A DNA stretch of 64,000 nt from NCBI GenBank assembly GCA_000091205.1, contig AP006499.2. One strand, 5' to 3'. The translations under genes and the position numbers were made by a program. This DNA is from Cyanidioschyzon merolae. Its lineage: Eukaryota. A model generated the notes under the pieces. The model did no database searches. It worked only from the letters and a program-made list of their open reading frames with translations, and was not told the DNA's origin. Below are positions 5,277-55,263 of this stretch, one piece after another (position 1 is the first letter of the stretch; the number at the start of each line of letters is the position of its first letter).

Positions 5277-5699
5277 CCAAGCGAAACGCCCCGCTCGAGG
5301 ACAGACGTATACGTCCGTCTGAGCGCTGCATGCTGAATGGCGCCAAGTCACTGCACTGCGACTGGTATCGGTACCCTGGGGCCTTGCAAGCACCCTGGTG
5401 CTGAGTTTGAAGGCTTGTTTTCGGGGCTTTTATAGCAAAGGAACATGCTATGGGAAATGTGACGATCGTCCATAGAATAGTTTGGGAGCGTTCTCTTTCA
5501 GTCGGGAAACTGCTGGCGTCTTCCCGCACCCGTGTGTGCGGTGAGTGGACCGCTGGTGGCGCTTTGTAGACGTCGCTACGCCTATGCGAGGGCGTTTCGG
5601 GGTGACTCGAGGATCGCTTCTCTTCGACGCGTTTTCCTCATGGAGCAGAGGCATGGTAATGTGTCCGTTTTTAAGGTTCAGCGCACCGTTGGAAAGACA

Positions 5700-7376
5700 T
5701 CACCAGCACCACCACCGCCTATCACACGGACGATGCCGCCCGTGTACAGTAGTGGCGAGAAACCCGCCCTGGACAAAACGTCTCCAACCGAGGTGCAGAC
5801 GTCTCCTAGTCCTTTTGGACCGGCCATCTACTACTGCTTCCAACGTTGTCTCATATAGTTCGACTTTGAGAGGTTGTCCCAAAAAATTCTCTCTTGTCGA
5901 CTCTGGAGGTCTCGTCTCCAGCACCGCACATTTCCTTGTATTGATTGCGGCGTTAAAGTCTCGGTTCACGAATTCCATACGTTTCTCCCCGTTGGTAGTT
6001 GTGCTTACTAGTGCGCCTAGTCCTCGAACTTTCGCCCTCCTTTCCGTTTGCTCCTCCGTCAGCGCTCCGTACTTTTTTATATCCTCAGGGGTCCGTTGGC
6101 ACTTTTCCATCTCCACGCTCTGAAGTGTACACCCCAGTTCATGGTGTGTATGCAATGCTCGGAACTCATCTACAGGTATTGTAACAAAACACCTCGCGCA
6201 CTCCTTGGATGTTCTTGTCGTTGGAGCTGGCGTAGTTCCTTTTTGTATCTTCCGGCGCCCTGCTCCATATGCCACTACGAGCCTCTGATTTTCATCCTCT
6301 TTCAGGGCACTCAACTCATTGAAAAAGTCCGCGAACGCCCGCTGCCTCCCACCGTACAGATTCATCCGCAAACGAGCCCGCCGGGGCTTGGTATACTCCT
6401 CCCACAGCGCATCCCAATGGGCAACACGAACTTCCATGAATTTCCGAAAAGCTTCAAAGTCGGCTCTTCGGCTGGTCACCTCGCTCAAAGCCTCCAGGTG
6501 ATCCTTCATTCCTGCGTTCCACTTCTCAGTTTTCTTCCTCGCATTCATCATTCCCGATTCTCGACAGTATCTCGCTCTCGAGAACCTCAAAAGACGCATG
6601 TCTTTCTGACGGAAGTTGCCGTCAGCACCATCTTCCGCACGCTTCGGTGCTGCGATGGTGATGATATTTGTGTTTCGGGGGTCCGCGCCAACGACAAGGT
6701 CGTTATCCTGCACTTTCTGCGTCTCAAGACTCGCCTCCTTCTTTTCTTCATGCTTCATCGCGTCAACGACAAGCACGTTATCCTGCACTTTCTGCGTCGC
6801 ATGTTCCGCCTCCTTCTCATCTTCATACTTCGTCACGCCAACGACAAGGTCGTTATCCTCCATCTCCTGCATCGCAGGATCCCCCTCTTTGTTTTCTTCA
6901 TCCTTCGTCACGGGCGCAGCCGAGGGCCGAACTGGACGATCTTTCTTCAACCGCCGATAGTGTATACACAAGGCTACTCCATCGGTTTCGATCAACCCAG
7001 TGAACCACTTTTGCTCGCTCACTCTCAGACGTTTGAAATTGAAGATATTCTTCCAGTACGTCTCCCGGTTTTCGCCGGTGAAGTCCTCCCTGCTAACATT
7101 GAACTCCGGACTGATCTCCTTCATGATGCCGTAGAGGACGCCGGAATCGATAGTCACGAAATGTGACTTGATATTGCACATTGGAACGATGTTGAAGCGC
7201 TTCCCCATTAGGAAAGCCTTCCGTCTCTCCCACTCTTCATTTTTGTCCTCACTTAGCTCCACCTCTGCCTTGCGTTCGAGTTCTCGGTCCAGAAACACAA
7301 AATAGCGCAGGATGAGGCGATAGTATCTTTCCTTATCTTTTTTATCTCTGATATCTTGTCTGCTGGATTCGCCCAC
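5700..7376 (-). CDS. TnpB/Fanzor-like RNA-guided-endonuclease-family protein (RuvC-like nuclease with Zn-finger); probably the 3' exon/major part of a longer gene
   Basis: RuvC-I-like motif [17 protein letters not shown] Cys/His cluster follows: CARCF...HTHHELGC...EKCQ. The RuvC-III hallmark is [15 protein letters not shown] (D-x-NAA-x-N). The N-terminus is K/R-rich ([13 protein letters not shown]-like). Upstream ORFs on the same strand in alternating frames (7253-7633, 7618-7812, 7870-8181) suggest extra exons or frameshifts. Confidence 0.6.
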
Positions 7377-8200
7377 CCGAGTACCGCACGGTGCTCTTGT
7401 ATAACCGCACGGATTACAGAAGCTTCATTCGTGCTGCCGTTTGATATCCTCATGTCCACAAATTCGACCTCATCTTCATATCTGCGATCGTTCGTGATGC
7501 CATTGATAATCGCCCATATCCCCTTGCAAGAGATACCCCCGTACAGCGCAAACACGGCGCGTATCATGAAACGTTCGAGGTTCATTGTCAAAAGGTTCTT
7601 CAGGTTCGTGATATACTTCATCGCTCCGTACATGTAAATACCCCGGTCACCCTTGTATCGAGTACCCTCGAACCCGTAAAAGGGATGTCGTTCGTGGAGC
7701 GCGTGAACCCGCCCATTTTACCCCGCGTTTCCTCTGCACCAAACACCAGGTGCCGAATAAAGGTCTTGTCAAAGAACTCGTCTGGAATCTCGACTGTTTC
7801 CACGTGCGCCACGTCTTCTTACATCTCGCGCACCAAATTCATCAGTCTTGACGACACCTTTATAATACTCTAGGAGTACAGATCGACATGCTGTCTGATG
7901 TCGTCTTGCAACTTTTGCTCATCCGAATCCTCGAGGTGTCCATGAGGGCGGGTTACCACTACCGTCCCGTCATAGTCTCGTGTTTCGTGCAGCTTCTGAC
8001 GCCGGGCCTCCCCTTTTGCTTCCGTGTCTTTTCCTGTTCCTCTGCACTTGGCAGTGTTTCTCTTTTTTTTCTGGCAGCCGGCGACACTGCGCCTCCAGGA
8101 TCCTTCATTTCTATGTCCATAACTTTCCTTTGCTATGTTTTTGAAAAAGAACGCATTTTGAACGCTTCCGTTATAAACCACGTAAAATCACTTGAATACA
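5830..8200 (-). mobile_element. putative Fanzor/TnpB-carrying transposable element (approximate bounds)
   Basis: The TnpB-like ORF lies in an AT-richer island (about 7400-8450). DNA and protein homology to the second copy (53125-53950) ends abruptly near 5830-5865, which would be the putative right end. The left bound is uncertain. Confidence 0.35.
6690..6925 (-). repeat. in-frame coding tandem repeat (~78-81 bp x3) inside the Fanzor-like ORF
   Basis: The DNA unit caacgacaag[g/c][t/a]cgttatcct... recurs at ~6690, 6773 and 6846. It encodes ...[11 protein letters not shown]... three times. The last copy is the RuvC-I strand itself. Confidence 0.7.
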
Positions 8201-8605
8201 CTCATGTGAAGATTGAAACACAATTGAATTTAAAGATTATATTATGCTACGACTTGAACGCAAATACAACTTGTGCGTTAGAGCAATACGCTATTGATAA
8301 GGATCGCGTTTCCCTTCAACGGCGAGGTACGCGTCGTATCTCATACCTGCCTGATCTGAAAGTGGGCTTATCGACTGCGCTATTGAAAAAAAGAACAGAG
8401 ACTAGCCCCTATATAGCAACGAAATAACATTTTCTTCTCCCTTCAACGATAAACGTTAAAAGGCGGGAAAGGTTTCCATTTTGTCGAAACTTTACCTTCT
8501 TGGCGGAAGATCTCGCGAGCCGGACGAGTATGCCTGGCGGGTGCTTCATGCTCCCGCACTAGCGGGTGCCGTAGTGAGATCTTGGCAGCTCGTCCGAAAC
8601 CCAAT

Positions 8606-8888
8606 TTTTATTGGAATAGGACTAGAAGTGGACAGCTCTCATCCAAGTGTCGCCTTGGTCGCAGTGATCGCTTATAGTGACCCTTTGCGCGGCCGCACGC
8701 AGAAGCTCTGTCTGCGATAATTGCTGGCTCCCAGATTGATAACGAAACCTGATCCCGTGTCGCGCAAACCACGCCTCTAGTCGACGCCCCCAGTGGTATG
8801 GCAAAACCTTTCTGTCCCCGTGATGCATCCACACAAGCGGTTTAGGCGCTGTAGCGGGTGCTCAGCGCCGGCACTCGGCACACAATAG
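8606..8888 (+). repeat. ~280-bp dispersed non-coding element, copy 1 (candidate ncRNA gene or TE terminus)
   Basis: About 75% identical over its full length to 42343-42618 in the same orientation. Shared blocks are tttatt..aggactagaagtgg, tcatcca.gtgtcg, tggtcgcag, gctggctcccaga.tgataa, cgacgccc..cag.ggt.tggca and gcgggt.ctca. No protein-level conservation was seen in any frame. Confidence 0.65.
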
Positions 8889-9346
8889 ATCGTAAAAAAA
8901 CTACCCGTACATCCGAGAGACATTATAAATAATGGAACATGGGAGTAGGGTTCTCCAGCATGATGAACGCTCTCTCGATTACCAGTACCCATCCATCCCG
9001 CGATTTTAGATCCACGGTCAACGAAAACGTCTTGTGAGCGGAGAGCGGAGCGCCGCGCGGTACGCGCTCCACCGCGCGCCCGTTGATGATCGCGAGCGCG
9101 CCGGTGCGCCGCGCACTGCACCAACGACCGCACAATGCTCACGTCCGCGTTGGATTGTCTGGGTGTTTGTTTTCTTTGCAGTGACGAGGAGGCATACGGG
9201 TTTGCGCTTACAAGTCTAGCGCTCACCGCAAGCACTGGTGGCTGCGTGAGGGCGCAGACGAAATCGGGTGGTTTTTTACCGACAGAAGCGCATTTGATCG
9301 GGGCTGGAACGCTGCGCTGCTTGCGTGTGCTCGTGCCGCTCGTACG

Positions 9347-14539: not shown

Positions 14540-15150
14540 GAGGTCCTCGTAGCGGTGACACTTGTCAGGTTTTCCTGTATACCCACAGTAGCTCCTTATG
14601 CTTCGAGGCCGCCCTGTGGCGTATGAAGCCCTGCGTCATCGCTCGGTACTTAACCTTGAAGGGTACCGAAGACTCTCCTCGACGTCATCCTGCGTTACCG
14701 CGCCCGATAGCGTACAATACGATCAGGGGCTTCCTCTGGGCGAGCCCTTCAGCTATCACACTGTCTGCTTCACGAGCAAGCGAACGCTGTTCGATTCAAC
14801 GGAGGATTTCTGGAACGCGATGCTCTCCTTGATGAAACGAGAACCAGAAGGAACATCCAGGCTGGGGAACAGTTCGAGAAACGTCGAGCCGTCTAGACTC
14901 GCTTGCTGCGAAGCGACGATGCACGCCCCATTAGAAGAGAGCCTCGGGATGGTTCGAGTTCGAGTCCAAGACACTTGGATCGAAACCGAAGAGACGAAAG
15001 CCCCCCAAAGCATATCCCGCGACATGTATCGCGCTGCCTTCGGATTGCGTTCCTTCGATGGCCACAACGAAAGCAGGATATACCTTTCGAGCGAAATCGA
15101 TTGCTTGACGTGAAAAGTTCTGGGATGCATCAGCACGAGCGTATGTGCAA
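14540..15150 (+). repeat. ~600-bp dispersed repeat, copy A (inverted partner at 21180-21790)
   Basis: ccttgatgaaacgagaaccagaaggaacatccaggctgg aligns with the reverse complement of 21430-21470 (ccttgatgaaacgagtaccggaaggcaaatccgagctgg). Homology is traceable from gtagcggtgacacttg to ctttcgagcgaaatcgattgcttgacgtgaaaag. Long ORFs are open on both strands but no domain was recognised. Confidence 0.65.
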
Positions 15151-30960: not shown

Positions 30961-31610
30961 GTCGTCTGGTCACCAGCACTGTGTTTGTTGGTATGCTCAT
31001 ACAAGCGACGTTCCATACGAAGCCCATTTGGCTACCAGAAATGAATACAACTGAAACATGGAACGCGCAGTCGTAGCTAGACGCAAGTGGAGCGTCAAGA
31101 ACAAGTTCTTTCAATCGTAGTAGTGAACGCGGGTGCTTTGGTTTGTGCGCATATGTTAGGCTGTTTTTGTTTTCGTGGCGGAAGCGTTTTCGGGAGGAAG
31201 CAGCTTGCTCCATCGACAACATCGAGTCGAAAGTCACGATGAATGAAAGACCGCAGGTGCGGTCATCAGGATGACGTCTCAGCGTCCTTCGCGCACGCCT
31301 CCGAGAACAATGTGTCTGGCATAGCATCGCAGCACTGAAGCAGTTTGATGGGCACCCATGTAAGAAGGTAATGGAACGGATCCATTTCTCTAACTCGGAC
31401 GTGCACGCTGAAATTTGTGTCTCTTCCAAGGATCAGCAGCACCAGACGATGCGGACTTTTTTTTCTGCGACTGCATCGTTTTCTACTCCCATATCTCGAG
31501 ATGAGAAAACGCCGGTTATTCCTTTCGCTAACAGCTGCGCTGTCAGCAATGGAAGCGTGTTGACGGCAGTGTTCAAGTCCCAACTTTGCTACGATCGGCT
31601 GTTTTCCATG

Positions 31611-31893
31611 TCATTCCCGCACAGGTACAAGTTGCGATCTACGCTGTGCTCGATACACTCATCTGTTTCGTATACAGGCTCGTCATTCCCGCACAGGTAC
31701 AAGTTGCGATCTACGCTGTACTCGATACACTCATCTGTTTCGTATACAGGCTCGTCATTCCCGCACAGGTACAAGTTGCGATCTACGCTGTACTCGATAC
31801 ACTCATCTGTTTCGTATACAGGCTCGTCATTCCCGCACAGGTACAAGTTGCGATCTACGCTGTACTCGATACACTCATCTGTTTCGTATACAG
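31611..31893. repeat. tandem minisatellite, 72-bp unit x ~3.9 (near-identical)
   Basis: The unit tcattcccgcacaggtacaagttgcgatctacgctgt(g/a)ctcgatacactcatctgtttcgtatacaggctcg recurs at 31611, 31683, 31755 and 31827. Confidence 0.9.
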
Positions 31894-32464
31894 CCTCAGC
31901 GCGCGCTTTGCACTGTCGACCCTTGGCTGCGGTCAGGTGTTTCCGCGTGTCCATCACAGCATCTCCTCGTTCTACGAGCGCCTCGGTATACCACGTGAAC
32001 GCTTGGTTCATCACTCGGTACATGCTCTTCAACGGTACTTCAGGCTCCTCCGATGCCCTTTACCGTATCCGCTCCCGGTACCGTACCGTGGAGTCATGGA
32101 CGAGTGCGGCTGCGGGTTTCTCCGGGCGATGCCCCTGGTGAGTACGCTGCTCGCTGGTTACGCAAGAGTACGCTCTTCCATTCGATCAAGCATTTGCAGA
32201 TAGAAGAATCATCCATGATGGAACAAATCCGGGAAGGAAATACAGGTTTGGAGAACACCTCAAGAACGTTTGATCTGCGTACGCGCCCAACGAGCAACAA
32301 ATAGACGCGTTTCTGTCTCTCTCGAAGGGAATCAATCATGGGACGTCAAGAGGTCAGTGAACTTTCGGATTCCGCTCTTGAAGAATTCGTGAAAAGATAA
32401 TGACGAGAGTTTATCGTCGTCGATCCAAGGGCGCGAATCACGGCATCCACAAGATGCCGTGAAA

Positions 32465-40578: not shown

Positions 40579-42342
40579 GCGAGCTCGTAGAAACAGCTTC
40601 TCCCACCGACTACCGGTATCCGAGACACTGCAAGCCGTTCCGCGGGCGTAGCAAGCCGGTACCCATACCTAGTCGCTGCAACAACTGAAGCTGCTCGCTC
40701 TGATACCAGATCCAGCAAAGGGATGACGTGTTGCACTGGGATGCCTCAAGCGCCCTATTCCCGACGCGGGTATCCATGCACCGGGGCTTGCTGCTGGAGC
40801 AAAAAGTCGTTTACAGACTATCATATCATAGAAGGCTCCAAAGAGAGCACCATCTCGCTTTATGATCTTTGACGGCAGTGAAGCTTTGCAACCAGCGGGG
40901 TGCAGTCCGCTCCGATTTGATGATTTTTTGCTGGTGGACAGAAAGTGTGAACCTCTTGCGCACTTGAGTATGGTCTCCTCGCGTTACATAGGCAGCCCGG
41001 TGTGAAACATGAGGTCCTGAACGGGCTCCCAAGCACTGTCACACTCGCCAATGGACACACTCGGCTTCCGAGGTACCGCGCATGCCTCACACTGGGCGAC
41101 ATCGAAACGTCGCCGAAAACGAACCCCTCGAGGAACGGTTTTTGGTACTCGCCCCAGAGTCGATGCATCCAGCTGGGCGTGCCGGGAGGCGCAACTGCAG
41201 CCGCAACCGCCAACGTCTATTGGAGGTCATCCTGAACCCGTTCACGGGAATCCACTGGACCATGCAAGGCCCGCGAGATGAAGCAGGTTCGGTGTATAAA
41301 CTGCGCGGTTCTAGGCGTTGAGGAGCGCTCGCGCCCAGTACCCAGGCACCCGAATGATTTTCCAACCTTCTACTCGGGCCTGTCACGAGCCCCGATGAAA
41401 TCTACGGTAAACTGGATGAATTGATGGCATCCTACGGCTGATGGCATTCGAGCCATAGCTCCATGTGGCCTTGGCGTCTCCGAGTCCGGGACTCGTAGAC
41501 GTGCCTCAGGGCGCTCTTTAGATGCGAATGATAGAAAGCATGTGCTTGCGCGTACACCTGTCGAGAACGGTCCTTTTCGGTTCGTGACTCTCGTTCAATA
41601 AAGGCCGCCGAATAAGAAGCGACATGCAAGCAGCCTCGTGCTCAACAGAGTTTCGGCCGCTGCTACAGCTACTGCTGCTGCTGCACCACGCGAACTTTGA
41701 GCATCGGTGTTTCGTGCACTACTGACGATGCTCTGCGTCTTCACTGCATAAGCCTTAACGACACTATCCATGCTGCTGTTTGAGCTAGGCCCCAGCATCT
41801 CCAAACACGAGCAGATGGGTAGGGGCGTCAAGCACACGTGCACAGCACACTCTCTCTCGAACGTAATTTCCAATGAGATGCCGCCCTTGGTGCTTTAAAC
41901 GAATGCTGCCACATTCCATTTTAAGAGTTATCGACTTGTCTTTCCCATTCGTCCCTCGCAGTGGTAGGATCGATGATGCATCTGACCACTTGATTTGATC
42001 GGAGATTCCAGAGGATCGTGGACAGCAGGCAGCGCGGCTCTCGGAATGCCTGTACGGATATAGTTCAAAGAATTCCATCAAGCCGAGCGAGGGGTAAACG
42101 AGGACCCATCGAGTGAGAGGGACCAAAGGCCGGTGAAAAAGAAACAGAAACTGACCACTAAATACCCATGACCCGATGACATTTTCCCCGCGTCTGTGGA
42201 AAGCGTTGCAAAGGGCGAAGTTTTCCGTTTTTTCGAAGGTTTACCGCCTAGGTGCAAGTTCCTGCGAGCTGAACGAGTCCACTGAGCAGTTGCTCTGTGC
42301 GGCTCGGCAGTGGCGAGGCCGTAGCAACACGTCCACAAAGCA

Positions 42343-42618
42343 TTTATTCTAGGACTAGAAGTGGGTAGCGTTCATCCACGTGTCGTCATGGTCGCAGCGG
42401 TTTCCGAGTCTATCGCTTTGTGCTGCCGCATGTTGTAGGTCTGTCTGCAGAGCTTGCCGGCTCCCAGAATGATAATTAGCCGTGATTCCGTGTCAGGCGT
42501 AGGATTCTGCGAGCCGACGCCCTCAGCGGTGTGGCAGAGCCATTCTGTCTCCATGCAGCATCCGTACCAGCGGTATAAGCACCAGTGCGGGTACTCACAA
42601 TAATCACTCGGCGCATAG
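42343..42618 (+). repeat. ~280-bp dispersed non-coding element, copy 2
   Basis: See 8606-8888: ...tttattctaggactagaagtgggtagcgttcatccacgtgtcgtcatggtcgcag...gctcccagaatgataattagccgtgattccgtgtc... Confidence 0.65.
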
Positions 42619-42967
42619 TAGAACGTACAAAATGACCCGTATATCCGAAAGAGAGTTTCCGTCATGGAACTTAAAGATAGCATGTATCATGATGGACGCT
42701 TTCCCGAATGCCATGATTCATCGCGCAACCTCAGATCCCTGCTCAGTGGACGAATTTTTTGTCATCGAAAAAAGGATTCGCAGATGCCGCTACGAGTTGC
42801 AGCCATTGCCAAGTACAGCCTCGAAAGGCATTGTGCAACTGAACCTAACAGCAGCTTCAGGACGTGTCTTTCTTAAAGACGAACGCTTCGGAATCCAGCA
42901 CGATTTTCGAACCCCATAACGCGTCTGCTTTCTGGGGTTATTAGGAGCTTGCGTTCGCCAGGTTGCG

Positions 42968-44548: not shown

Positions 44549-45777
44549 AATCCCGACATCCATTCGCCGAGGTAAACGCTTACGGATGATATGCGAACGA
44601 CCTTGGGAGTCCAGAGGCGACCACTCTTAGTGTATCACTTTGCTCCGTGCGCTTGCAAGGCTGAGAGCTCCTCGCAGAGGCTTCGATGCGTTGCGTGATC
44701 GTCCCGCACTGGAACTCCGTCGACGTTGTTGTATAGGCGGGTTTTTTGTGGGTGTATGTTCACGGGTGCGGGTACCTCGTTCCGCTGACTCGGCGGCAGT
44801 CTGCGGTGATTTTCGTTCGAGAGCGTGCCAGAGCGTTCCGCCGGGTGCATCTCTGGTGCAGGACAGCTCATTGAGCGAGCGGCCCATACATGATTCTATG
44901 GTGCGAAGAGCGCCCCACGTCCGACGCTGTAACCTTCGTGCCGCCTCAGCGACTGTTGACGAACGGTGCGCTGGAGCCACAGACGCGCTGACCATGCGGC
45001 AAGGCACTGCGTAGTCGTTGCAACGGAGGTTTCCTCAGACGCAACCACTAGCGACGGAAACGGGACACCACTTCACTCGCCCGTATGAAAGGTTACGGAA
45101 GCGATAGCGCGTGTAGAGCGGATGCGCCCTGTGCCCAACGGATACCACATAACCAGTGCGAGGACGCATGCGGAAACGTCGCTCCAGACACACGGGGTCT
45201 GGCTGGGGCTCGTGGAACACTGCAACTTGTCGTCAGCTGCTGGGTCTCAGTTGTGGTCGACACCCGTGTCAGTGGAAAGTGGAACGGATCCACTTTACTG
45301 ACTCTGGCGAACACCATAACGCTTGAGTATTCGCCATTGGTATCAACAGAAGCCCTTGCGGGCGTTTGCTTACACTGTTTCCTTTGCTTCTCTCTTATTT
45401 CGGCTTTTCAATACGGGGGTCTCTCCTTTCGCTCCAGCTCCATTGCTAACAGTGGCTGAATATAGGTGGCAGCATTCAAGTCCCGATGATGCTGCCTCCA
45501 ACTGGTGTCGATGCGTTTCATACACAGGTGGATGCCACGATCTGTGCTTCGTTCGCTGTTCGCGTCTTCCTTGTACACAGCCTCGAAGAGTCGCTTCGCA
45601 ATGGTGACATTCGATAATGGCGAGGACTTTCCAGGTGTGCACCACACCTTCCTCTCTGAGGGCCTGCATGTGGCGCATAGGGGCTTGTTTCAGCGCTCTG
45701 TTACCGGCAGTTGACGGGCTCAGAAGGCTGCTGGCGAGATCCTCCTCCAGTTCCGTGCCCAGTTCGGTATCGGACGA

Positions 45778-51197: not shown

Positions 51198-52841
51198 TTA
51201 GCACTGAGCTTCGTGTTCAAAGTATGGCTGGTCCTCGTGTGGCATTCGAGGACTTACTGCCGAGCTGAAGTAGTAGAAGCCAGGATAGTCGGCGAGATTA
51301 GAGCACCGCTCCGTGTAGAGATCGGCGAAGAAGCTGACCTGGTGCGCGAAGAGCGTCGTTCGATGTGCCGATCGAAACAAACCACCAAAGTGCGGATTAA
51401 AAGCATCCTCAATGGACTCTCGGACCTTTTGGAGCTCAGCCTGCAGGATTCCTTCTTCATCGGGTCGTTGGCGAGCGGAGGCATCCAAGCCCCGAAACAT
51501 CTCCGCTCGCAAAAACTCCAAAGCGCCCAGTCGGTCGAGAAGCCCTCGCGCTCGAGCCAGAGCACCGATCTCTGCACTGAGTTCGGGGACAACCAGCAAC
51601 GTACGCCAGTGATGCGTCTTCCGCGCGACCAAGACGTCTGCGTAGATGTGGTCACCGACGTAGAGAACAGTGCTTCCTCGAGAGATTCCTGCGAGCTCGT
51701 GAAAGGCGCTAATGGATCCACCTTTGAAGACTCTACCCCGCAGCGGCCGAGCACTCAGTTGGTCAGTGCGCACCTCGTATAACATGGACCTTCCGCTTTT
51801 GGTGTCGATTTCCCGCAGAGCTGTACCCGAACGAAAGAAGAGCGGCTTTTGAGCCCCCACGATGCAAAAGTCGAACGCTTCTCGCCAGCCGGCGTTGGGT
51901 TCCGCCCCGTTCGCAAACCGCCCTAGTATGAACCTGAGCACTGCATCCGTGTACCAGTATTCGGAATTCGTGAGCAGGAACAGCTGTTTCCCGGCATGTC
52001 TAAGCAAACGCAACATTCGATGGATAGCATCATCGTTTGGTAGATAGTCTGCGAGCCGGGCAAGGGTCTCGTTTTTCAGGATGCCGTGGTCGTGGATTCG
52101 ATCCGCTGCAGCTCGAACATCCTGCCATAAGTTGAAAAAGCTCAGGCGGCCGTGGTCACCATCACCGAAACGAGCACCTTCTGCAGATTCCTCTGCGGAC
52201 TGATCGAAGTACTCCACGAGATCAGCGTACAGGTTGGCGATCGGCAGATGGTACAGCGTGTCCATGCTCTGGAACTCCTCCCCGACCTGAGCAGAAGCGA
52301 TGTTTCCCGCTGGATAGGCAGCATCGACTTGTTCCGCGGTTAAGCGTCGGCGACCGTGAACGGCGCGCAGAATGACACCGTAAGCATCGCACTTGACAAA
52401 GTTTCCACGAAGAGCATCCACCAAAAGACCCCGAATGAGAAAACCCTCGTCAAAACGCCATTCCAAGATGCACTCTGGGTAACAAAACTGCTCGACCAGT
52501 TCGCGACATATAAGGTTGTACTGGAGCTGATCAAATGCAGGTCGCAGGTACGCTGCGAGCGTATAGTCCATATCGAAGCCGATGTGTGTAATGTGGTCCA
52601 AGTTCACGTCGCGGTTTGAGTAGACGCGTTGCGCTGCTGCGCGGCGAAACTTGCGAACGGCACCCTGTGCCTTCCAGGAACGAATATCGTCCGCTGTAAT
52701 GACCCGCACGAGATCTGACGCACGCTCTCCTCCAGCCAAGTGGTTCAGAACGCTTTTGGGGCTCATAGGGCTCCGCGTTGCACCACCACCAGGTAAGGTT
52801 GCTCTCGACGTTTCGTCTGAGGGTTCCCCCGACGCTGACAT
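51198..52841 (-). CDS. cytosolic purine 5'-nucleotidase (HAD superfamily, cN-II/NT5C2 family)
   Basis: GFDMDYTLAAY (HAD motif I), KCDAYGVILRAVHG, NSEYWYTD, DFCIVGAQKPLFF, YVGDHIYADV and HHWRTLLVVPELSAEI, collinear with NT5C2. Confidence 0.85.
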   Translation of the reverse strand: MSASGEPSDETSRATLPGGGATRSPMSPKSVLNHLAGGERASDLVRVITADDIRSWKAQGAVRKFRRAAAQRVYSNRDVNLDHITHIGFDMDYTLAAYLRPAFDQLQYNLICRELVEQFCYPECILEWRFDEGFLIRGLLVDALRGNFVKCDAYGVILRAVHGRRRLTAEQVDAAYPAGNIASAQVGEEFQSMDTLYHLPIANLYADLVEYFDQSAEESAEGARFGDGDHGRLSFFNLWQDVRAAADRIHDHGILKNETLARLADYLPNDDAIHRMLRLLRHAGKQLFLLTNSEYWYTDAVLRFILGRFANGAEPNAGWREAFDFCIVGAQKPLFFRSGTALREIDTKSGRSMLYEVRTDQLSARPLRGRVFKGGSISAFHELAGISRGSTVLYVGDHIYADVLVARKTHHWRTLLVVPELSAEIGALARARGLLDRLGALEFLRAEMFRGLDASARQRPDEEGILQAELQKVRESIEDAFNPHFGGLFRSAHRTTLFAHQVSFFADLYTERCSNLADYPGFYYFSSAVSPRMPHEDQPYFEHEAQC

Positions 52842-52924: not shown

Positions 52925-53950
52925 TCAAAATTGAGACACGAAGCGACAGGGTGCCAGAAAGCTACGGAACACACCGCGGTTCGTGGAGCGTATCTCCGGG
53001 CGCGCTCGGGCGACACGCGGGGATACGCGACGGTCGTGCAAAATGAATATCCACTCACAGACGCCTCGGGGTCTTTCTTTTTTTGACCAGCCCCCTGCTA
53101 TCGGTATCAGCTTCTCCTTGTAAACCTTGAGCCTGAGAGGTATTCCAATAAAGTTCGATGTCGTCAGCTCCTCAGGTCTCGTCTGCAGCACCGCACATTG
53201 TCTGATATTGATAGCAGCGTTAAAGTACTGCTGTACGAACTCCGCGCGCTTCGTACCGCTGCTTGATCTCACCGTGGCGGGGGTTCCTCGAACTCGTGCC
53301 TTTTGTTCCATTTGGCGCTTTGTCGGCTCTCTGTACTTCCGATCGGCGAAGCGCTCCGCTGGCTTAGCTCCGTTTGGACCGTTTGGAGAGGGCACCCCAG
53401 CTCATCCCTTAATTTTCTAAAATGAATACACTTGTTTATGCCGCTAGGTGAAGACCTTCCTGGAGCGAGAAGGACTTGGGGAAGAAAGACGACATATGTC
53501 TCCGTGGAACCATGTGGTAAACGCTTCAGTGCTTCGCCCGCTGGTGCCATCATTACGTTGCAAGATAGAAATTACTCTTTCGATCGGGTTGAGCCATGGA
53601 GGATACGTAGTAATGAAAAGCAGCTCTACTCCCCGGTAGAATCGGCAAAAACTCGATGGTTAGGGGAATGGTCAATGGCCATGTTCTGTAATTGAAGGTC
53701 GTCACCAGATGTCATGGGAAACGACTTCAGTGCTTCGAAGAAGTCGGGGCTGTTGTACGAGCCTTCGCTACGAGCGAAACGGATGCCGCCAAATGAATCC
53801 ATTGTAGCTAGAACAGATGATGATGTTGTCGTTGTCTTCAAGTTCGATTGCACATACAACGTGCTCCCTTTTCTGCGAGTACCCATATACGCTCCCGAGG
53901 TTGCGTCCGAAGGAAATCTCATCGACTGAAAAAACAAACCGATATCCTTT
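52925..53950 (-). pseudogene. decayed second copy of the TnpB/Fanzor-like gene (frameshifted; RuvC-III Asp lost)
   Basis: ORF 52925-53395 reads EFVQQYFNAAINIRQCAVLQTRPEELTTSNFIGIPLRLKVYKEKL. Copy 1 has [46 protein letters not shown] at the same place. The upstream frame 53269-53553 carries RDELGCPLQTVQTELSQRS, matching [19 protein letters not shown]. It sits in an AT-rich island at 53400-54500. DNA homology between the copies ends near 53125. Confidence 0.5.
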
Positions 53951-55213
53951 GCCTCAAAGTAATCGCGACGTTCCAGGAACGCTGTCGATTCGATTTCGTT
54001 GCCAGAGAGCCGTGACTGAAATCCGACTTGTTTACGAACTGTATCCCAGTGAATTCAGGGTCACACGAAGCAGCTGTTCAGAAACAGAGATGGCCATTGC
54101 GGCTGCAAGCTTCCCTTTTGCCGTCCGTAAGGTGCTCAACGGGTCGTTTTGTACCATGGACCGCAAGCAGTCTTTGAGCATATCGGTTTCCGGCACCGAG
54201 CGCATGTACTTCTTCGTCTCAGTGTTACTCAACCATCAGCGTCCCGTTGTATACTTGACCTCAATGCGGAATGCAGTCCTCCATGCACTGTTCAGTCAAG
54301 AATCTAGGTCGTCCACGATTTATACGGATACATTGCATCGTGATTTCGACTTTCTCCTACACACTGCCAAAAAAAGCATTCGATTACACGCAGCTGGAAT
54401 GGAACAAAACTGAGCTGAAGTTTTTGTAACGACGCCAGTACTTCATTGGAACGCTGACAAAAAAGCATTCTTCCTTTGGTCAGAACGGTACTTGTGGTGC
54501 GGGTGTACGGGCATCACCCGCTATTTTAGGTTGCATGCTTTCGCTCAAAAATAAACGCTATACCAGGAAAAGCAACACATATGACCAGCCTTGCATCGTC
54601 AGAAACGCTCGCAACAGACATTTTGCGTGTGTCGGGCGCCTCGTTTGATACGCACCGTTGACTCGAACTCGAGCCTGCTCTTGATGATTGCCTTTGACAC
54701 GAAGTCCCGAGTGTCCCAGTGATGGGCAAGGTGCGTAGAAACGGTGCACGCTCCGTCTAGGCGAGTAGATGCTCGTGCGTAGTCACGGCATTGCAGACCG
54801 GATGTCGTTGAGCAGGTTCCTCTCAGGACCGAGAACGACACGCCTGCTTGGCGGAAAATGCTTTCACAGACTGTTGACGATGTCACAGCGGAATCCAGCT
54901 CCGACCGATATAGATACATGATCGCTCCTAGAACGGGAGCAGAGGCATGAACCGAGACTGCTCGTGATCTCGTTCTGTTTTCAAGTGCGTGCCACCCCGT
55001 TCGCCCGAGGTTTCCTATCTCCATCTCGCTGCCTAACTTGCTGCAGTTGGCGACCTCGTCCCACTATCTATTATCATGAGACCTCTACCTATCATCCAAG
55101 CGGTATTCCCATTTCTCCATGAGAGCGTCGCCTTTAGCGGACAGCGTCGCCATGAACGATTGTTCCAGAATTACTTGCGTCCTCTTTACGATTGCATATC
55201 CATGTTCATCAGG

Positions 55214-55248
55214 CACCACCACCACCACCACCACCACCACCACCACCA
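55214..55248. repeat. (CAC)n microsatellite, ~11 units
   Basis: caccaccaccacc... in the 3' flank of the 55264-56382 gene. It produces the artefactual poly-His and poly-Val ORFs. Confidence 0.9.
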
Positions 55249-55263
55249 TAATACAGAGCGCGC

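Follow-up and report, generated by a model that had tools for sequence, protein, structure and literature searches.

The decayed CMe-1A transposable element found in the window, by which we mean the whole 64,000-nucleotide stretch of Cyanidioschyzon merolae 10D DNA analysed here, has its 3' end at about 5701-5712, and we consider it moderately probable that the last ~100 nt of this end encode a putative Fanzor1 omegaRNA scaffold. A conserved non-coding region with predicted structure lies at or past the 3' end of the open reading frame (ORF), reaches the right end of the element and gives way to variable flank, which is the arrangement sought in an omegaRNA region. Our literature search returned no paper linking a Cyanidioschyzon Fanzor to an omegaRNA.

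Identity and extent of the element

The element is copy 1 of CMe-1A, a known Fanzor1-carrying transposable element, here decayed and shared between strains; the assignment was made by comparison with the published text of PMC3627910, not with the Repbase consensus. The features at the scale of the whole element, together with those of a second copy in the window, are as follows.

5701-9048, minus strand: CMe-1A copy 1, whole element of ~3.3 kb (coverage, conservation and nhmmer)
~9040-9060 and ~5701-5712, minus strand: left end and right end of copy 1
8330-9048, minus strand: 5' non-coding module, corresponding to TE-N2_CMe, a separate short element
5772-8016, minus strand: Fanzor1 coding remnant (pseudogene) in three frames, with two in-frame stops N-terminally (tblastn)
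5700-7376, minus strand: mechanical ORF of 558 aa (ORF list)
6686-6912, minus strand: three in-frame 75-bp (25-aa) repeats within the Fanzor ORF (TRF)
53058-53341, minus strand: copy 2, a decayed C-terminal fragment, aa ~434-531, within ORF 52925-53395 (tblastn)

The interval from ~9050 to ~5710 is covered by 76 related loci according to blastn. Copies of CMe-1A are many, at ~75-80% identity, and most of them are decaying pseudogenes. The alignment of left ends contains an exact core, CGCTCACAAGACGTTTTCGTTGACC, at 9040-9016, and a conserved T-rich block, often with GA before it, abuts the left ends of the family. The 5' module is 67% similar to window positions 42134-42670. No transposase was detected, the remaining ORFs of the element matching no Pfam family. 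The flanking host genes encode a DEAD_2/Helicase_C_2 helicase and a 5'-nucleotidase, as the initial annotation had stated, the latter being an exact match to XP_005538195 (C. merolae 10D).

The nuclease remnant and its Fanzor1 class

Both of the minus-strand TnpB/Fanzor-like sequences described in the initial annotation, copy 1 in ORF 5700-7376 and a copy 2 fragment in ORF 52925-53395, were recovered in our analysis. Its further claim, that the gene encodes a TnpB-type nuclease belonging to Fanzor1, is supported by sequence profiles and by fold comparison. When 37 diverse members of the family, the window ORF among them, are combined into a profile, it matches the solved Fanzor1 structures PpFz1 (9cf0, E=1.3e-23), SpuFz1 (8gkh, E=1.4e-15) and GtFz1 (9cer, E=4e-10); a single sequence as query reaches only E=0.15. 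A shallow family profile had no match in the PDB, matches coming only once distant representatives were added, and a second, word-indexed homologue search returned the same family only, with no added diversity. When the AlphaFold2 model of the near-intact relative P0003 (pLDDT 57, low confidence) was compared with the PDB by Foldseek, the top seven matches were all Fanzor1 structures (E=5e-8 to 5e-5, probability 1.0) and TnpB 8h1j came next; the TM-scores are low (~0.3) because the domain arrangement of the model is poor. The C-terminal TNB/zinc-ribbon family PF07282 of Pfam was matched by 9 of the 37 representatives (best E=2e-8) and, as the only family and below threshold, by close paralogues; Pfam searches of the window ORF and copy 2 returned nothing.

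P0003 aligns with the window by tblastn in three blocks, each in a different frame: residues 14-111 in frame -2 (8016-7723, two stops), residues 114-240 in frame -1 (7717-7337) and residues 239-752 in frame -3 (7343-5877). ORF 5700-7376 carries the RuvC motifs GADPRNTN (D232), VDEFRAL (E404) and NRDFNAAIN (D473), whose acidic residues, judging from motif position, would be the catalytic ones; across the 37 diverse family representatives, D232 (GADPG), E404 (VDEFRTS) and D473 (NRDFNAA) are invariant. The nearly invariant G234 of these representatives is R in the window copy (G234R), and the family-consensus RTS motif has become RAL. With two frameshifts, two in-frame stops and a lost stop codon in addition to these two changes, the nuclease gene of copy 1 is dead, a pseudogene. 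The exact product of ORF 5700-7376 is absent from public protein sets, and in the best recovered copy (L008/L011, 752 aa) a premature TAA removes the last 36 aa. The number of 75-bp repeats differs between strains, the orthologue P0002 having extra units. Copy 2 is dead as well, its catalytic NRD motif having become QQY with loss of the aspartate.

The right end of copy 1

The right end was defined by comparing 48 non-redundant, independent insertion sites from related metagenomes. Conservation per column remains between 0.8 and 0.9 as far as ~5712 and is ~0.4 by 5702, the information content fading 2-12 nt past the inner stem of the terminal hairpin described below, and the flanks are unrelated between CMe-1A copies. 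The family profile matches the window at 5960-5711 (nhmmer, E=7e-82). The right end of copy 1 is at ~5701-5712, roughly 155 bp downstream of the previously reported break, with an uncertainty of ~10 nt in the exact position because subfamilies differ past the inner stem and no empty insertion site was recovered.

The initial annotation had placed the end where homology between the two window copies appeared to stop, near 5865/53125. The drop in DNA identity at this point is real, since blastn aligns only 5867-5959 with 53134-53226 (77%), but protein homology continues: tblastn extends it to 5784/53051 (aa 434-531, 47% identity, E=6e-20), and the statement that the sequences are unrelated past the break does not hold. 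The peptides quoted for the break also disagree with its coordinates, '...EAVVDG' ending at 5823 and not 5865, and '...PIAGG' at ~53090 and not 53125. Furthermore, a profile made exclusively of the region beyond the break in 47 other copies matches 5864-5712 of copy 1 (E=7.9e-46) and 53115-53058 of copy 2 (E=0.0042); homology of this kind beyond 5830/53125 in additional copies is what the initial annotation had itself named as evidence against its proposed end. The stretches 5712-5865 and 53058-53125, which lie within what it had offered as candidate guide regions, are internal to the element and conserved among independent insertions, and so cannot be guide or flank DNA. The segment 5865-5772 is true conserved coding sequence that finishes with ...KVELYEKKLEAVVGGRSKKTGRRLHVSWRRFV before the stop position, a C-terminus common to many paralogues, and the paralogous proteins finish with ...WRRFV and a stop. 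An element ending at ~5865/~53125, with its scaffold upstream and with 5700-5865 and 52925-53125 as host guide or promoter DNA, is therefore hardly credible, even though the blastn alignment of the two copies does end at 5867/53134. The interval first flagged, 5400-5870, does contain the true right end and the structured tail at the place where Fanzor1 omegaRNAs lie.

In copy 2, the family profile matches 53226-53058 (nhmmer, E=1.7e-25). Searching downstream of 53058 for the tail consensus gave no significant match; a colinear CGAACCGCGGTG at ~52984-52973 is suggestive only and is not significant as a tail remnant. The orientation of the downstream host gene shows no significant bias (24 same versus 16 opposite).

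Predicted structure of the conserved tail

The features of the tail and of the adjoining flank are the following.

5775-5805, minus strand: predicted stem-loop 1, GAGACGUCU pairing with AGACGUUUU (minimum-free-energy fold of consensus and window)
5769-5771, minus strand: family stop codon site, CAG in the window copy where most copies have TAG or TAA (48 tails aligned)
5754-5768, minus strand: predicted stem-loop 2, with a GGCGGG/CUCGCC stem (RNAalifold pairs 198-214)
5742-5757, minus strand: most conserved non-coding block, CGCCACTACTGTACAC (majority fraction 0.92)
5701-5744, minus strand: terminal long imperfect hairpin (stem-loop 3), with the right end at its base
5680-5700, minus strand: hypothetical guide segment in intergenic DNA upstream of an RTEL1-like gene (by analogy with the SpuFz1 omegaRNA)

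In the family, a conserved non-coding tail of ~60-70 nt follows the coding end. The CAG that stands in place of the family stop in copy 1 leads to read-through to the TGA at 5702-5700, so that 5771-5700 is a translated non-coding tail; the earlier remark that both ORFs read on without a stop was accurate.

Three stem-loops are predicted in the family consensus tail, whose fold has -45.2 kcal/mol (z = -4.2) and is equalled in stability by 0 of 200 shuffles. The sense strand of the window tail reaches -50.0 kcal/mol (z = -3.3) and the antisense strand -28.3 kcal/mol (z = -1.1). Sense is the more stable strand in 37 of the 48 copies (p=3e-6), an asymmetry that is partly compositional since the host flanks lean the same way (31/48, p=0.075). 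The stem of stem-loop 1 overlaps the last ~11 codons, with 83% of alignment cells paired; that of stem-loop 2 is near-invariant, with 98% of cells paired, and its apical loop varies between copies. The CGCCACTACTGTACAC block, which occurs once in the window, possibly forms a long-range helix with the coding CAGTAGT; this pairing of CAGTAGT (5836-5830) with ACTACTG (5753-5747) shows compensation in a single case (L009) and several changes that G·U pairing tolerates, and is not significant. Copies of a transposon are alike through common descent, and their conservation alone is no proof of selection.

For the terminal hairpin, the window sequence gives -23.5 kcal/mol (z = -3.4); z averages -1.9 over 47 copies and is below -2 in 22 of them. 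This hairpin occurs in three variants with stems of at least 9-13 bp, CGTCGTTCGA/TCGAACGGCG, AACGTTTTTC/GAAAGACGTT and GGCGAGCACGCGC/GCGCGTGCTCGCC, which pair in different registers. Because of these differences in register between subfamilies, RNAalifold missed the terminal hairpin and recovered, from 260-nt tails, stem-loop 2 and a coding-region stem only. Covariation in P1, SL1 and SL2 was no better than in shuffled controls (38/500 and 133/500 reach the observed values), and alternative helices near the stop codon, checked by hand, showed mostly single, pair-breaking changes. A search of Rfam with positions 5300-6400, both strands, gave no match at E<=10.

Alternative roles of the tail

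Instead of an RNA scaffold, or besides it, the hairpins of the tail could be DNA-level transposition signals for an unknown trans-acting transposase, for which the subterminal hairpins of IS200/IS605 and the 3' hairpin of Helitrons are parallels. The absence of inverted repeats, of a detectable target-site duplication and of an encoded transposase is consistent with such signals, as are the strong hairpin 6-14 nt from the 3' end, kept by different sequences, and the T-rich left-end block (often with a preceding GA), which resembles the IS200/605 target motif. However, no significant hairpin was found at the left end (z = 0.1 to 1.1), the 5'-TC/CTRR-3' termini of Helitrons are not seen at the right end, and several stem positions are G·T wobbles, in the sense strand only, which suit RNA better than DNA extruded from a duplex. 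We regard a purely or partly DNA-level role as unlikely; both roles coexist in IS200/605, and it is thus compatible with an omegaRNA.

Two established element types were compared with CMe-1A and rejected. An IS200/IS605-type element would have subterminal hairpins at both ends and a Y1 (HUH) transposase; CMe-1A has the right-end hairpin, no significant structure at the left end and no match to such a transposase. Helitrons have 5'-TC...CTRR-3' termini, with the hairpin placed 10-12 nt from the 3' end, and insert between A and T; the hairpin of CMe-1A lies 6-14 nt from the end, its right ends read ..GGCGTTTGGTG, ..GTGGTG or ..TTTGTTTCCAGGGG, not CTRR, and the left flanks are T-runs, not A.

As the tail comes right after the stop codon, and 3' ends are commonly structured, it might be a 3' UTR, a termination region or an RNA-processing region of the Fanzor mRNA with no guide-RNA role. 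This is improbable, given that the structure extends exactly to the end of the element, its 3' arm being part of the terminal sequence, and that every experimentally tested Fanzor1 locus yields an omegaRNA from the same position. It is more improbable still that the tail is a functionless relic whose folds are a by-product of G+C-rich, G/T-rich sequence inherited by all copies: the lack of significant covariation and the pseudogene state of most copies agree with this, but the consensus is more stable than all of its shuffles, and three unrelated sequences form the terminal hairpin at one position.

A model for the candidate omegaRNA

If the tail encodes an omegaRNA scaffold, the sense transcript of 5805-5701 would form two short stem-loops followed by the long terminal hairpin, and the RNA would continue from ~5700 toward lower coordinates into host DNA, of which ~15-20 nt would serve as guide. 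The start at ~5700 is placed by analogy and applies only if any guide exists. The partner of this RNA would be an intact Fanzor1 encoded by another copy, which would cut guide-matching DNA once bound to it; the cut would lie beside a short motif, which is probably the T-rich sequence that abuts the left ends of the family. As the nuclease gene is dead at this locus, the RNA could act only in trans, or it is a relic.

The corrected anatomy matters in practice, since RNA-seq checks or guide predictions at the old coordinates would probe the interior of the element and not its end. CMe-1A gains a defined right end, a three-stem-loop candidate omegaRNA and a candidate left-flank motif, and with these a putative RNA-guided function can be tested directly in a red alga that is genetically tractable. 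The locus as such is an ordinary case, a dead member of a catalogued family whose end has been refined, and would not surprise a specialist. C. merolae grows at a temperature of about 42-45 °C and at low pH. A much broader picture, which we find rather improbable as a whole, is that CMe-1A keeps an ancestral IS200/605-like logic in a eukaryote: its ~100-nt right end would be both omegaRNA scaffold and mobility hairpin signal, insertion would occur at T-rich motifs, often within ~100 bp of gene starts, and intact copies from hot, acidic springs would offer a Fanzor1 naturally adapted to heat and acid, with a short guide RNA of three stem-loops.

Comparison with known systems

Fanzor1 omegaRNAs are between 75 and 150 nt long in total and contain 2-4 stem-loops (Xu et al. 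2024, PMC11423790; PDB 9CF0, 9CER). That of SpuFz1 consists of a 75-nt scaffold and a 14-15-nt variable extension (Saito et al. 2023, PMC10432273; PDB 8GKH), and that of GtFz1 overlaps 17 codons of the ORF end (Xu et al. 2024, PMC11423790). CMe-1A resembles SpuFz1 in its profile match (E=1.4e-15), in SpuFz1 being the best fold match and in having stem-loops followed by a variable flank. The two differ in that Spu-1 elements have 30-nt inverted repeats and CA/CATA at the left end, whereas CMe-1A has no such repeats and a T-rich left block; moreover, the RNA of CMe-1A is predicted, and the proteins share little identity (~13% in the structural alignment). The best sequence-profile match is PpFz1 of Parasitella parasitica (E=1.3e-23), and the predicted CMe-1A tail is similar in size and stem-loop number to the RNAs of PpFz1 and of GtFz1 from Guillardia theta; similarity in sequence between these RNA regions is not to be expected. 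The three solved Fanzor1 RNAs are reported to share a 7-bp SL1, to which stem-loop 1 (9 bp) of CMe-1A, or else its stem-loop 2 (6-7 bp), could correspond.

With ISDra2 TnpB, CMe-1A shares the RuvC nuclease superfamily, the lack of inverted repeats and of a detectable target-site duplication, a right-end hairpin and a guide expected from the flank; unlike ISDra2 and other IS200/IS605 elements, it has no Y1 transposase and no significant left-end hairpin, is eukaryotic and encodes a much larger protein (~750 aa).

CMe-1A itself was described in 2013 (Bao & Jurka, Mob DNA 4:12; PMC3627910) as an element of ~3 kb without terminal inverted repeats, whose copies are ~80% identical to the consensus, whose 5' 635 bp equal TE-N2_CMe and which has one Fanzor1 ORF. 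It was left unclassified, its target-site duplications could not be determined and no omegaRNA was given (PMC3627910). The window copy agrees with that description in genome, size, copy divergence, absence of inverted repeats, the 5' TE-N2_CMe module of ~650 bp and the sole Fanzor1 ORF. There is no difference in kind: it is a decayed member of CMe-1A, to which the anatomy of the right end is added here.

The right end of the element

The stretch has a G+C content of 55% and contains two related copies, and their neighboring genes are those given in the initial annotation, an RTEL1/XPD-type helicase near copy 1 and a 5'-nucleotidase near copy 2. The element itself belongs to a known family, to which the analysis adds a defined right end and an omegaRNA candidate that can be tested. 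The main features are:

5700-7376, minus strand: ORF of copy 1, 558 aa, with TnpB-type motifs (from the ORF list)
9040: left-end core of copy 1
5744-5701: whole terminal hairpin of copy 1, -23.5 kcal/mol, z = -3.4
start near 5282, minus strand: DEAD_2/Helicase_C_2 helicase, RTEL1/XPD type
52925-53395, minus strand: ORF that contains copy 2, a second, shorter relative
51198-52841, minus strand, start 52841: 5'-nucleotidase gene, identical to XP_005538195 of Cyanidioschyzon merolae strain 10D

A break in homology between the copies, at about 5865 in copy 1 and 53125 in copy 2, had been proposed as the right end of the element. The underlying observation holds in part, with loose coordinates: blastn self-similarity of the two copies is confined to 5867-5959 versus 53134-53226 (77%), and tblastn carries the protein match on to 5784/53051 (aa 434-531, 47% identity, E=6e-20). 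One scan of metagenome contigs yielded 79 loci, which, after orthologous sites were merged by their flanks, gave 48 independent insertions where the contig continues downstream for 300 bp or more. Their alignment consists of a common tail followed by unrelated flanks, with a column conservation of 0.8-0.9 from 6011 down to about 5712, 0.47 at 5711-5702, and about 0.35-0.45 beyond. The family profile matches copy 1 at 5960-5711 (E=7e-82) and copy 2 at 53226-53058 (E=1.7e-25). A profile made only of sequence after the proposed break, with the window's own row left out, matches 5864-5712 in copy 1 (E=7.9e-46) and 53115-53058 in copy 2 (E=0.0042), which shows that the element does not end at the break; homology of other copies past it, named beforehand as evidence against the proposal, was looked for and found.

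The conserved C-terminus of the paralogous proteins explains this result. It ends at a stop codon, TAG/TAA in most copies, whose family position corresponds to 5771-5769. Because copy 1 reads CAG there, its frame continues from true coding sequence (5865-5772) into the tail (5771-5700), which is translated as well. Since the whole terminal hairpin of copy 1 extends to 5701, we place the right end at 5701-5712.

The right ends of many loci lie within about 100 bp of a same-strand host ORF start (L015, L016, L017, L023, L025, L036, L041, L042, L058, L059, L064, and L069), and automatic gene calls consequently fuse the Fanzor tail to host enzymes, as in proteins P0085, P0092, and P0095 (methyltransferase, inner-membrane protease, and glycerol-3-phosphate dehydrogenase). 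The orientation bias of right ends relative to host ORFs, 24 same versus 16 opposite, is not significant.

Identity and left end of CMe-1A

CMe-1A, about 3 kb long, is the sole Fanzor1 family listed for C. merolae (Bao & Jurka 2013, PMC3627910), where approximately 150 copies show about 80% identity to its consensus. It lacks inverted repeats, its target-site duplications were undetermined, and it was left unclassified; its 5' 635 bp form a separate short element, TE-N2_CMe (PMC3627910). Copy 1 fits this description: the region covered by related loci extends from about 9050 to about 5710, and 8384-8938 is similar to a solo TE-N2_CMe-like copy at about 42100-42775 (minus strand), the short element forming the 5' ~650 bp of CMe-1A. 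The solo copy begins ...CCTTTTTTCGATGACAAAA and finishes ...CTGTTTCTTTTTC, termini which indicate that it has the CMe-1A left end and not the right-end tail. No other ORF of the copy 1 element matched a Pfam family.

In the left flanks, a T-rich run of 6-10 nt adjoins the left-end core, about 20 nt before CGATGACAAAACG (L008, L015, L018, L039, L041, L046, L063, L067, L068, L069, and L075), with GA in front of it in about 10 of 17 copies; copy 1 has CCGCTCTC at this place. The run may belong to the element as its outermost part, or it may serve as a target motif or as one recognized by the nuclease.

The copy 1 gene is a Fanzor of an already known family. It has 95 or more close relatives in hot-spring metagenomes, mostly 65-80% identical, two of them being orthologous loci that share its flanking genes. 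An exhaustive profile search (E<=1e-3) returned 3303 cluster representatives, typically of 600-650 aa. A profile that combines the window ORF with 37 diverse representatives matches the solved Fanzor1 proteins PpFz1 (E=1.3e-23), SpuFz1 (E=1.4e-15), and GtFz1 (E=4e-10). D232, E404, and D473 are invariant among the 37, nine of which match Pfam PF07282. For a low-confidence AlphaFold2 model (pLDDT 57) of the near-intact relative P0003, Fanzor1 structures take the first seven places among the PDB matches, and TnpB comes next.

State of the copies

Copy 1 is a pseudogene. Aligning the near-intact relative to it takes three different reading frames, and two in-frame stops interrupt the N-terminal part of copy 1. 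Copy 1 has also lost its stop codon, carries R at the nearly invariant G234, and has RAL in place of RTS. The insertion is common to Yellowstone strains and is therefore old. Copy 2 is a fragment of about 100 codons in which the catalytic NRD is replaced by QQY, and it shows no significant tail remnant. Among 76 loci, a continuous 752-aa frame occurs only in L008/L011 (L008 2210-4465, L011 773-3028), the one near-intact copy recovered. There, CAA>TAA after ...ENFIG cuts off the last 36 residues, exactly the ORF stretch just upstream of the predicted RNA stem-loops.

Within the Fanzor ORF, in-frame 75-bp (25-aa) repeats at 6686-6912 vary in copy number: the 10D copy differs from the Yellowstone orthologue (P0002/L002), and paralogues differ as well. 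At 45414-45482 (minus strand), the NRDFNAA-coding region that makes up positions 1-57 of the family tail profile has a weak, non-significant match (E=0.33), possibly a third fragment in an advanced state of decay.

Other repeats in the window include a perfect 119-bp x 3 tandem repeat at 1465-1822 (100% matches), shortly past the 3' end of the RTEL1-like gene, where the orthologous Yellowstone contig has three 38-codon ORF calls (L001 15659-16013); a 72-bp x 4 tandem repeat at 31610-31897 (99% identical); an inverted pair of ~200-bp segments, 14718-14915 versus 21607-21411 (69% identity, blastn E=3e-13); and, at about 55200-55260, a trinucleotide run inside overlapping ORF calls whose frames give 12 consecutive His, Val, or Thr.

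Structure and interpretation of the tail

Downstream of the family stop codon, the copies have in common a hairpin, the best-conserved block, and a long terminal hairpin, after which the flank begins. The first hairpin, GGCG(G/C)G-loop-C(x)CGCC, hardly varies in its stem but varies strongly in its loop, and the best-conserved non-coding block is CGCCACTACTGTACAC. The inner stem of the terminal hairpin exists in at least three sequence versions with different registers: CGTCGTTCGA-CTT-TCGAACGGCG, AACGTTTTTC-TTTT-GAAAGACGTT, and GGCGAGCACGCGC-TCGT-GCGCGTGCTCGCC. Past it, positions +1 and +2 are mostly T, and information content fades by +12. Subfamily-specific tails of 6-17 nt (TTTGGTG, GTGGTG, TTCAGCG.., TTTGTTTCCAGGGG) fold back to pair with the CAC(C)G... 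segment at the start of the terminal hairpin. The L081 insertion (~700-800) carries a tandem duplication of the element's final 49 bp (CCGCCACTACTGTACAC...GGCGTTT).

The 101-nt family consensus is predicted to fold into three stem-loops (-45.2 kcal/mol, z = -4.2), with 0 of 200 shuffles as stable. For the copy 1 tail, the fold energy is -50.0 (z = -3.3) in the sense orientation versus -28.3 (z = -1.1) in the antisense, and the sense fold is the more stable in 37 of 48 copies (p=3e-6); host flanks lean the same way, more weakly. Column-wise covariation of the proposed helices was no better than in shuffled controls, RNAalifold found the second stem-loop and nothing else in the tail, and Rfam gave no match, a pattern expected if differences among copies mostly reflect neutral decay after insertion. 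Support for the predicted structure comes from its thermodynamic stability, from the asymmetry between strands, and from the alternative forms of the terminal hairpin.

The hairpins might instead, or in addition, be DNA signals for an unknown transposase. CMe-1A resembles IS200/IS605 in having no inverted repeats, no detectable target-site duplications, and a T-rich block, often with GA before it, adjoining the left end; it differs in that its left end has no significant hairpin and it encodes no Y1 transposase, and the termini of Helitrons are also absent. The tail may otherwise be a plain 3' UTR or lack any function.

The best reading is that a dead CMe-1A copy has its omegaRNA scaffold DNA at 5805-5701 and that any guide would lie below about 5700, read toward lower coordinates. 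The initial interpretation was thus right in kind, since the gene is a Fanzor and a guide-RNA region at its 3' end is likely, but wrong in placement. In published Fanzor1 RNAs, the GtFz1 scaffold overlaps 17 codons, and omegaRNAs total 75-150 nt with two to four stem-loops (PMC11423790); the predicted CMe-1A tail RNA agrees with them in position and size.
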